Below are positions 58,915 through 60,246 of a stretch of DNA of 64,000 nucleotides, one piece after another. The stretch is from an uncultured delta proteobacterium. GTDB taxonomy: Bacteria; Myxococcota; Myxococcia; SLRQ01. The translations under genes were made by a program, and so were the position numbers. Numbering within the stretch: the first letter of the stretch is position 1; every line of letters begins with the position of its first letter. The notes beneath the pieces are model-generated. The model searched no databases. It saw only the letters and a list, made by a program, of their open reading frames with translations, and was not told the DNA's origin. Location: contig CAVSGM010000003.1 of the NCBI GenBank assembly GCA_963727485.1, positions 704,001 to 768,000 of the forward strand, in the 5' to 3' direction.

Positions 58915-59844
58915 TGGCCGACGCCGATCTGTTCAACCGCGTCCGCAAGACCTGGCGCCACCGCCGGAAGTGGGCGGCGCGCCAGGGCCTCGAGGCCTTC
59001 CGGGTCTACGACCGGGACATCCCCGAGCACCCCTACACCGTGGACTGGTACGCGGGCCGGATCGTCTGCGTCCACTACCCCTCGCGCCGGCGTCCCGGGG
59101 GTATCCCCGAGGCCGAGCTCCGCGCCGGCCTCGCCGAGATCTTCGAGGCGGTGGCCTCGGAGGTGTACCTGAAGACCAAGACCCCCCGGCGCCCGGGCCG
59201 AAGCCAGTACGAGAAGCTCGCCGACACCGGCCGGCGCTTGCCGGTCGCCGAGCAGGGCCTGCGCTTCTGGGTGAACCTCACGGACTACGTGGACACCGGG
59301 CTCTTCCTCGACCACCGGCTGACCCGGGCGCGGGTCCGGGACGAGGCGCGGGGCAAGCGCTTCCTCAACCTGTTCTGCTACACCGGCGCCTTCACGCGTC
59401 TACGCCGCCGCCGGGGGCGCCGCGGCGACCACCTCGGTGGACCTCTCCAACACCTACCTCGCCTGGACCCGGGACAACCTCATCCTCAACGACCTCGAGG
59501 CCAAGGCCCACACCCAGGTTCGCGCCGACGTCCTCCGGTGGATCACCACCGGCCCCGCCGGCGCCTTCGACCTCGCCGTCCTCGACCCCCCGAGCTTCTC
59601 CCGCTCCAAGGGCATGCGCACCGACTTCGAGCTCCAGGCGGATCACCCGGTGCTCCTCGCCGCCACCCTGCGCCTGCTGGCCCCCGGCGGGGTCCTCTAC
59701 TTCTCGACCAACTACCGGGGCTTCGAGCTCTCGGAGTCCGCCGCCGCCGGTTGCGAGATCGAGGAGCTCACCCCGGCCTCCATCCCCGAGGACTTCCGGG
59801 ACCGGCAGGTCCACCGGTGCTTCCGCATCGTGACGCCCCGGTGA
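58914..59844 (+). CDS. SAM-dependent rRNA methyltransferase (RlmK/RlmI-like; indel near 59397)
   Basis: [29 protein letters not shown]. Confidence 0.85.
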
Positions 59845-59865
59845 GGGCCGGGTAGGCTTTGGGCC

Positions 59866-60242
59866 ATGGCCCCGGATCCCACCGACCCGCGCCACTGGCT
59901 CCTCTACGACGGCGACTGAGGCTTCTGACGCCGCGCCGTCGCCTGGGTCAGGCGACACGACCGCGCCGGGGCGCTCAACCCGGAGCCCTTCCAGACGGCC
60001 CCCTCGCCGCCGATGACCCCCGAGCTGCGCCGGGCCTGCGCCCGGGCCGTCCACGTGGTCACCTCAAGCGGCCAGGTGCTCCGGGCGGGGCGGGCGGCCC
60101 TCTTCGTCCTCGAACGCACCGGCCACCCGATCCTCGGGCGGGTCCTGGGGTGGCCGCCGATGGTCTGGGCGGTGGAGCTGACGTACCGGGTGGTGGCGGC
60201 CAACCGCGGCTTCTTCGCCCGGTTCCTCTTCCGGCCGCCGCG

Positions 60243-60246
<4 letters not shown>
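59866..60246 (+). CDS. DCC1/DUF393-like thiol-disulfide oxidoreductase, putative selenoprotein (UxxU)
   Basis: ATG...CTC TAC GAC GGC GAC TGA GGC TTC TGA reads LYDGD-U-GF-U, in frame with ORF 60013-60246 ending YRVVAANR. Confidence 0.8.
59938..59956 (+). promoter_or_regulatory. Putative bacterial SECIS hairpin
   Basis: GTCGCCTG-GGT-CAGGCGAC, a perfect 8-bp stem; the G-containing loop is 17 and 26 nt after the two TGAs. Confidence 0.7.

Follow-up and report, generated by a model that had tools for sequence, protein, structure and literature searches.

A DCC1-like gene with TGA at both active-site cysteine codons and a conserved downstream hairpin: a likely UxxU double selenoprotein

Selenoprotein L (SelL) is a Prx-like protein with a diselenide in its UxxU redox motif; it has been characterised from eukaryotes and depends on a 3'-UTR SECIS. 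It provides a precedent for a UxxU diselenide, although the gene described here, unlike the Prx-like, eukaryotic SelL with its 3'-UTR SECIS, belongs to the DCC family. UxxU Prx-like proteins are noted in the available part of PMC2398784, where the SelL diselenide paper is cited by title. In bacteria, the UxxU families in Table 1 of PMC13188914 comprise a Prx-like thiol:disulfide oxidoreductase (PF00578), the metal-binding NF041115 and the FmdB-family TIGR02605. There too, two Sec residues three codons apart are predicted from TGA/Cys pairs; our query, in contrast, matches PF04134 alone in Pfam and nothing in NCBIfam. The Group 4 [NiFeSe] hydrogenases contain UXXU, CXXU and UXXC motifs, and the part of PMC13582414 available to us raises, and leaves open, whether one SECIS serves both UGAs. 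All three Sec patterns occur both in these hydrogenases and in the family studied here. According to the same source, Sec serves the hydrogenases, which are large enzymes, as a metal ligand, and UXXU is associated with tRNA-ReC, whereas here the protein has 126 aa, all four Cys/Sec states occur on one hairpin sequence and no tRNA-ReC was found. The closest relatives by sequence are the Cys-type DCC1-like/DUF393 proteins (PF04134; 'DCC family ... YuxK'; Arabidopsis DCC1), which share with the query the profile match and the DxxCxxC spacing and of which the nearest are 60-67% identical to it. It departs from them in having TGA for both Cys codons and a SECIS-type hairpin, and in three marks of its subfamily, an APSPPMTP segment, Cys58 and His63. 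Plant DCC1 is summarised as reducing carbonic anhydrase 2 in the available part of PMC7598583.

No DCC/PF04134 entry stands among the 119 families of a 2026 selenoprotein catalogue (PMC13188914, Table 1), and the main texts of PMC9312934, PMC13326102, PMC13745706 and PMC12013277 nowhere use the term DCC. The literature searched, which included few subscription papers, contained no report joining DUF393/DCC to selenocysteine or to a selenoprotein; in the bioRxiv passage available, the DCC name occurs only as an unreviewed annotation. We describe here an intact DCC1-like gene in which both active-site TGAs are likely read as Sec by means of one conserved downstream hairpin. The initial annotation had put this gene forward as a candidate UxxU double selenoprotein. 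That proposal is supported for the gene itself; the UxxU motif as such is not new, given Table 1 of PMC13188914 and the available part of PMC13582414. We conclude that the gene is genuine and very probably encodes a selenoprotein, from a family that the catalogues examined do not list, with known decoding machinery and a motif that is rare but precedented.

In the window, by which we mean the whole 64,000-nucleotide stretch of DNA that was analysed, the reading frame opens with ATG at 59866 and runs through 126 codons, with TGA at codons 18 and 21, to a TAG at 60244-60246 (Table 1). Start, stop, both TGAs and the hairpin were found exactly where the initial annotation had placed them, and its assignment of the product to the DCC/DUF393-like proteins holds: the 126-aa read-through product matches Pfam DCC1-like PF04134 with 62.6 bits over residues 12-115 (cut-off 27.8, E 1e-16). 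No Pfam family besides PF04134 was matched at E up to 1, so the AhpC-TSA profile (PF00578) is unmatched, and a search of NCBIfam (June 2026) with the product gave zero matches at E up to 10. In public protein collections the gene is present only as a 77-aa product beginning at Met50 (P0012), which is 100% identical to the query over 61% of the latter. On the upstream side lie genes for thiamine-phosphate synthase, peptidase C26 and a SAM methyltransferase, and a response-regulator/GGDEF gene stands tail to tail with the DCC-like gene; a scan for promoters and terminators found none. The SAM-dependent methyltransferase (PF10672; 58915-59844, plus strand) lies in two different frames, with the break near 59395-59437 probably caused by an assembly indel, which agrees with an earlier claim that errors elsewhere in the window are of the indel type.

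Table 1. Features of the DCC1-like gene and their coordinates in the window
Feature	Coordinates	Strand	Evidence
CDS, 126-aa DCC1-like (PF04134) protein, putative motif D15-x-x-U18-x-x-U21	59866..60246	+	Pfam match; homologue frame lengths
In-frame TGA at codon 18, in place of the first DCC-motif Cys; likely Sec	59917..59919	+	Homologue codons; TGA also in L526
In-frame TGA at codon 21, in place of the second DCC-motif Cys; likely Sec	59926..59928	+	Homologue codons
In-frame SECIS-type hairpin, 8-bp stem, conserved core 59940-59954, loop GGU 59946-59948	59938..59956	+	Fold, conservation
77-aa shortened product of public protein collections, start Met50, without the motif	60013..60246	+	P0012
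Cys58, conserved; candidate resolving or metal-binding residue	60037..60039	+	Alignment, locus counts
His63, start of third predicted strand	60052..60054	+	Alignment; model strand 63-65

Homologues were sought with an alignment of residues 22-126 only, so that the motif could not steer the search patterns. An earlier scan with a Cys-containing pattern had given TGA in 1 of 80 loci, a result biased by the pattern, and a DNA pattern for DGxUxFUR, scanned over 6 of 64 parts, had yielded 120 matches, 118 of them by chance and 2 homologues. From the restricted search we kept the best 80 of 139 genome matches and the best 80 of 143 metagenome matches, ranked by likeness to the query gene; 27 and 20 of these, respectively, carried TGA. 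Together with 13 earlier loci they made 173 (43 TGA/TGA, 8 Cys/TGA and 122 Cys/Cys, with no other codon), and 30 duplicates were dropped at 95% nucleotide identity. The 143 non-redundant loci comprise 37 UxxU, 8 CxxU, 98 CxxC and no UxxC forms, again with no other codon at either site; counted by site, TGA and Cys stand at 37 and 106 for codon 18 and at 45 and 98 for codon 21. D15 is present in all 143 subfamily loci, and the DxxCxxC spacing reads as DxxUxxU in our gene if TGA is Sec. The UxxU loci are labelled Myxococcota (9), Chloroflexota (7), Planctomycetota (4), Armatimonadota (4) and Pseudomonadota (2), with 11 unlabelled; the substitution of TGA for Cys spans at least five phylum labels. 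The homologue comparison proposed in the initial annotation thus finds TGA aligned with Cys in dozens of relatives, with the hairpin kept alongside. A targeted pattern scan for UxxC returned 114 matches, of which 24 are DCC proteins at E under 1e-15. One of them, L526 (Armatimonadota), is the one UxxC member of the subfamily; it carries this hairpin at the identical position, and tRNA-Sec is present in its genome. The other 23 fall in different DCC subfamilies and have different sequence downstream.

The hairpin, a perfect 8-bp stem closed by GGU, folds at -12.5 kcal/mol. The distance to the loop is 26 nt from UGA18 and 17 nt from UGA21, and the conserved core begins 11 nt past UGA21; in E. 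coli fdhF the spacer is 11 nt. With a loop of 3 nt, G first, and the stem, distances and energy just given, it falls within the bSECIS consensus set out in the available part of PMC13188914 (loop of 3-9 nt with G at position 1-2, stem of 4-16 bp, 16-37 nt from the UGA, MFE at most -7.5). When scripted, that consensus was passed by 42 of 45 TGA forms against 14 of 98 Cys forms. Taken in isolation the hairpin is modest evidence. The folding energy of the stretch is ordinary for DNA of a genome with 73% GC (z-scores between -0.71 and +0.10 for six segments), and a loose SECIS-like fold was seen after 364 of the 1,500 random TGAs sampled; a loop G on a perfect stem of at least 8 pairs was seen after only 9 of 3,000.

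The strong evidence comes from comparison. Of the 45 TGA forms, 44 make the five inner pairs, as against 1 of the 98 Cys forms; the two outer pairs are less well kept (37/45 and 18/45). Among 45 distinct rows, in which kin are not independent, 90% of cells are paired and the stem has 17 double-sided changes, both values above all 500 shuffles; slid controls, in which the partners were moved by 1-3 columns, were 16-46% paired. Two of five covariation measures, the number of pairs with double changes and the number of pair types, failed against the shuffles (42 and 53 of 500). RNAalifold returned this stem alone, a lower stem not being conserved. The codons under the hairpin, which fixes residues 26-29 (AWVR), are also constrained: in the TGA forms, codon 26 ends in C in 45/45 genes and codon 28 in 40/40 Ala/Val codons, and Arg29 is AGR (AGG/AGA) in 42/42. 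The comparison values for the C-ending and AGR biases elsewhere in the same genes are 390/926 and 38/593, and the Cys forms give 13/30, 21/65 and 2/16 at codons 26, 28 and 29. As had been claimed for the hairpin's 3' arm, AGG and CGA are rare in the host, at 3.4% and 2.8% of 70,145 Arg codons in 1,713 long high-GC3 ORFs. On this comparison of sequences, the hairpin is selected as RNA and its synonymous positions are locked. Trp27, a residue also found in 85 of 98 Cys forms, supplies the loop G as the last base of its codon; the G is thus forced and does not discriminate between the two kinds of gene.

From these data we regard it as very probable that UGA is read as Sec in this gene, and as quite probable that both UGAs are. 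The CxxU forms have the hairpin in the same place, which indicates that it works at 17 nt, and by the same reasoning the UxxC form L526 indicates that it works at 26 nt; decoding of the first UGA alone is attested by that one locus. The natural occurrence of both mixed forms with the hairpin in the same place therefore makes one SECIS likely for both codons and lends support to the single element originally proposed. Two rounds of SelB delivery from one hairpin would be the simplest reading. SelB-GTP-Sec-tRNA would bind the G-containing loop and decode UGA18 from 26 nt; with the hairpin not yet unwound by the ribosome, another such complex would then bind it in turn and decode UGA21 from 17 nt. 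In an uneven sample, CxxU forms outnumber UxxC forms, suggesting optimal placement of the hairpin for the second codon.

What the protein does was approached through its predicted fold. In an AlphaFold model of the product (pLDDT 80, pTM 0.70), strand 10-14, helix 19-31, strand 37-41, helix 52-58 and strands 63-65 and 71-73 are followed by four helices, and the motif sits at the start of helix 19-31, where it caps the first helix as in glutaredoxins. This topology fits a thioredoxin-like fold; the structural matches are mostly GST N-domains, thioredoxins and glutaredoxins, all of them weak (the best with Z 6.0 and rmsd 2.7 over 74 residues). Foldseek with the model gave no match under E 0.001, and a sequence search of the PDB none under E 0.3. 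A cis-Pro before strand 3 is a usual thioredoxin feature; it is absent from the product, which has Ala61-Val62 there. We lean towards a thiol-disulfide oxidoreductase that acts on a protein partner. In such an enzyme U18-G-F-U21 would cap helix 1 of a domain of the glutaredoxin/thioredoxin type and alternate between the selenolate and diselenide states, perhaps with Cys58 as a helper.

The main rival to this redox cycle is a metal site involving Cys58 and His63. Both UGAs would still be Sec, and the protein would bind or traffic a soft metal through U18, U21, Cys58 and His63 and would not be mainly a disulfide oxidoreductase. His63 is invariant among 120 aligned proteins, and Cys58 is kept in 90% or more of them and in 140 of the 143 loci, a count that is partly circular with the search pattern. 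These constancies and the missing cis-Pro would suit a metal site, as would the listing among UxxU families of the metal-binding NF041115 and an FmdB-family protein (PMC13188914, Table 1). We nevertheless consider it unlikely: most of the top fold matches are thioredoxins, glutaredoxins and GST N-domains, for plant DCC1 the reported activity is the reduction of a protein partner (PMC7598583), and no metal-resistance genes recur in the neighbourhood. The neighbourhoods of the TGA forms contain no common neighbour that points to a substrate, and those neighbours that do recur track lineage. Thirteen loci (5 UxxU and 8 CxxC, the labelled ones Armatimonadota; L248-L251, L272, L275, L280 and L292 among them) share one gene directly downstream on the same strand.

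Whether a selenoprotein reading is open to the host at all depends on its Sec machinery, for which the initial annotation had proposed a search. The host genome (G000; 93% complete, 73% GC) has the full set: SelA (384 bits), SelB (above cut-off), SelD, with an in-frame TGA of its own, and one tRNA-Sec (SelC; 65 bits) with a TCA anticodon and a G discriminator. Its formate dehydrogenase has TGA at the Sec site; the alpha gene (G000:C3:464474-467283, minus strand) is in two pieces in different frames, likely because of an indel. Among the 29 genomes with TGA-type genes, 27 have a strong SelA and 25 a tRNA-Sec, with at least one of the two in each. SelA is also present in 42 of 50 Cys-type genomes (50 of 57 loci; one genome, G100, is unpublished) and in 55 of 61 genomes of the host's class. 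Its co-occurrence was tried as a discriminator and dropped, since it is near-universal in both of these groups. Sec machinery in relatives is necessary, not telling.

The same tRNA data bear on a second explanation, that one or both UGAs are read as Cys by a tRNA of the SelC*/tRNA-ReC type or by a mis-charged tRNA-Sec, so that the product would be CxxU, UxxC or CxxC. In the available part of PMC13582414, tRNA-ReC-like genes are given for about 56% of genomes with UXXU hydrogenases, whose UGAs may be Cys; Armatimonadota, the source of those genes, hold 4 of our 37 UxxU loci. By the rule of that paper, such an extra tRNA is 80 nt or more, has a UCA or GCA anticodon and carries a U discriminator. 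The host has instead one long TCA tRNA with a G discriminator, beside a tRNA-Cys of 74 nt; ARAGORN found no second long TCA or GCA tRNA among 59 host tRNAs, and no tRNA of the tRNA-ReC type was found in this 93% complete genome. All 25 TCA tRNAs in the 29 TGA-type genomes likewise have a G discriminator and none fits the rule, in a search cut at E 1e-8, below which a diverged tRNA-ReC could fall. Recoding as Cys thus appears improbable, and we favour Sec at both codons.

Far less probable still is that the TGAs stem from long-read errors, or from two nonsense mutations in what would then be a pseudogene. Such an origin might be suspected from the indel breaks in the assembly and from the CxxC motif of five relatives of the host's class. 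However, an independent short-read contig (run X3; 242 nt, 59882-60123) spans both TGAs with zero differing letters, from which we conclude that the TGAs are real: where the initial annotation had asked for an inspection of reads, this contig has TGA and not TGC or TGT at both codons. A contig from run X5 covers 59814-60027 with 2 differences, the places of which are not listed, and runs X1 and X2 gave no clean coverage of both TGA codons. Moreover, the 37 UxxU genes are diverged (46-92% mutual protein identity, median 60%) and all have full-length frames, open for 107-121 codons past the motif (98-131 across homologues), and their third-position changes (41/78) exceed those at first and second positions (27 and 24). 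Two nonsense changes at the catalytic codons had been called unlikely from the outset, and the X3 contig and the 37 full-length genes contradict them as a reading. Two in-frame TGAs in one gene might suggest a variant genetic code that reads every TGA as Trp or Gly; this can practically be dismissed, since RF2 is present (above cut-off) and TGA is the stop of 1,032 of 1,713 long host ORFs, which means that TGA is not reassigned, and since TGA is also the terminal stop of 22 of the 37 UxxU genes and the in-frame TGAs align with Cys only.

The history of the Sec and Cys forms was examined in a tree of 112 columns and 147 rows, which is poorly resolved. The two kinds interleave, with 19 Sec/Cys changes on the free tree, and the AU test does not reject one Sec clade (p-AU 0.17). 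That the forms have their hairpin sequence in common speaks for one origin, with transfer and reversions afterwards. L380, a CxxC gene that has the whole hairpin and the AGG codon and is sister to a CxxU gene (support 92), fits a recent Sec-to-Cys reversion. AWVRR residues typical of the TGA forms are seen in this gene and in three further CxxC genes (P0061, P0071 and P0104), and all four are possible recent reversions of this kind. The Cys-type genes of genomes of the host's class group with Myxococcaceae-labelled loci in the tree, which makes a member of the Myxococcota the likely host. The subfamily profile was unmatched in the four other genomes of the host's family (completeness 85-98%). 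Outside the subfamily, the UxxC forms in other DCC subfamilies (L472, L518, L519, L529, L497, L521, L498 and L443, and 15 Acidobacteriota-type loci, e.g. L479 and L496) bear the labels Actinomycetota, Anaerolineae/Caldilineae, Planctomycetota and Vicinamibacteria. tRNA-Sec was found in three of the four genomes with such forms that were tested. To judge from their sequences, these forms are likely separate Sec gains, and they suggest that Sec may have entered the DCC family more than once.

Taken as a whole, the data incline us slightly towards a broader view, in which a multi-phylum family absent from the lists would use one 15-nt hairpin with plain SelB and tRNA-Sec to decode UGAs 9 nt apart, and would thereby place a diselenide site in a DCC fold. 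The bacterial selenoproteome would gain a family that gene callers reduce to a 77-aa fragment without the motif. An open question, whether one bacterial SECIS can drive two close UGAs without extra factors, becomes testable; compared with the Group 4 hydrogenases, a single domain of 126 aa that occurs in all four Cys/Sec states offers a far simpler setting for it. If the reading is true, the natural CxxC/CxxU/UxxC/UxxU series on a fixed SECIS is a test set for tandem Sec insertion and for the role of a bacterial diselenide. Sec at these positions would also point to redox activity of the DCC motif in bacteria, for which the function of the family is only predicted.

The host genome contains three further likely selenoproteins of known kinds. 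L538 (G000:C1:553242-553541), L539 (G000:C2:1506400-1506699) and L540 (G000:C3:504464-504763), two of them AhpC/TSA-like and one DsbA-like, each have UxxC with a SECIS-like fold. L536 (G000:C1:609436-609675) is a 78-aa CxxU protein that we take to be SelW/Rdx-like, and L537 (G000:C1:928264-928563) is a UxxC protein with no Pfam match, presumably resembling the C-terminal part of GrdB/PrdB; a scripted fold check of these two gave no SECIS-like fold. Finally, two GTPase matches, at G000:C3:569221-569841 and C12:27957-28577, are of equal score and length, which suggests that contig C12 duplicates part of C3.
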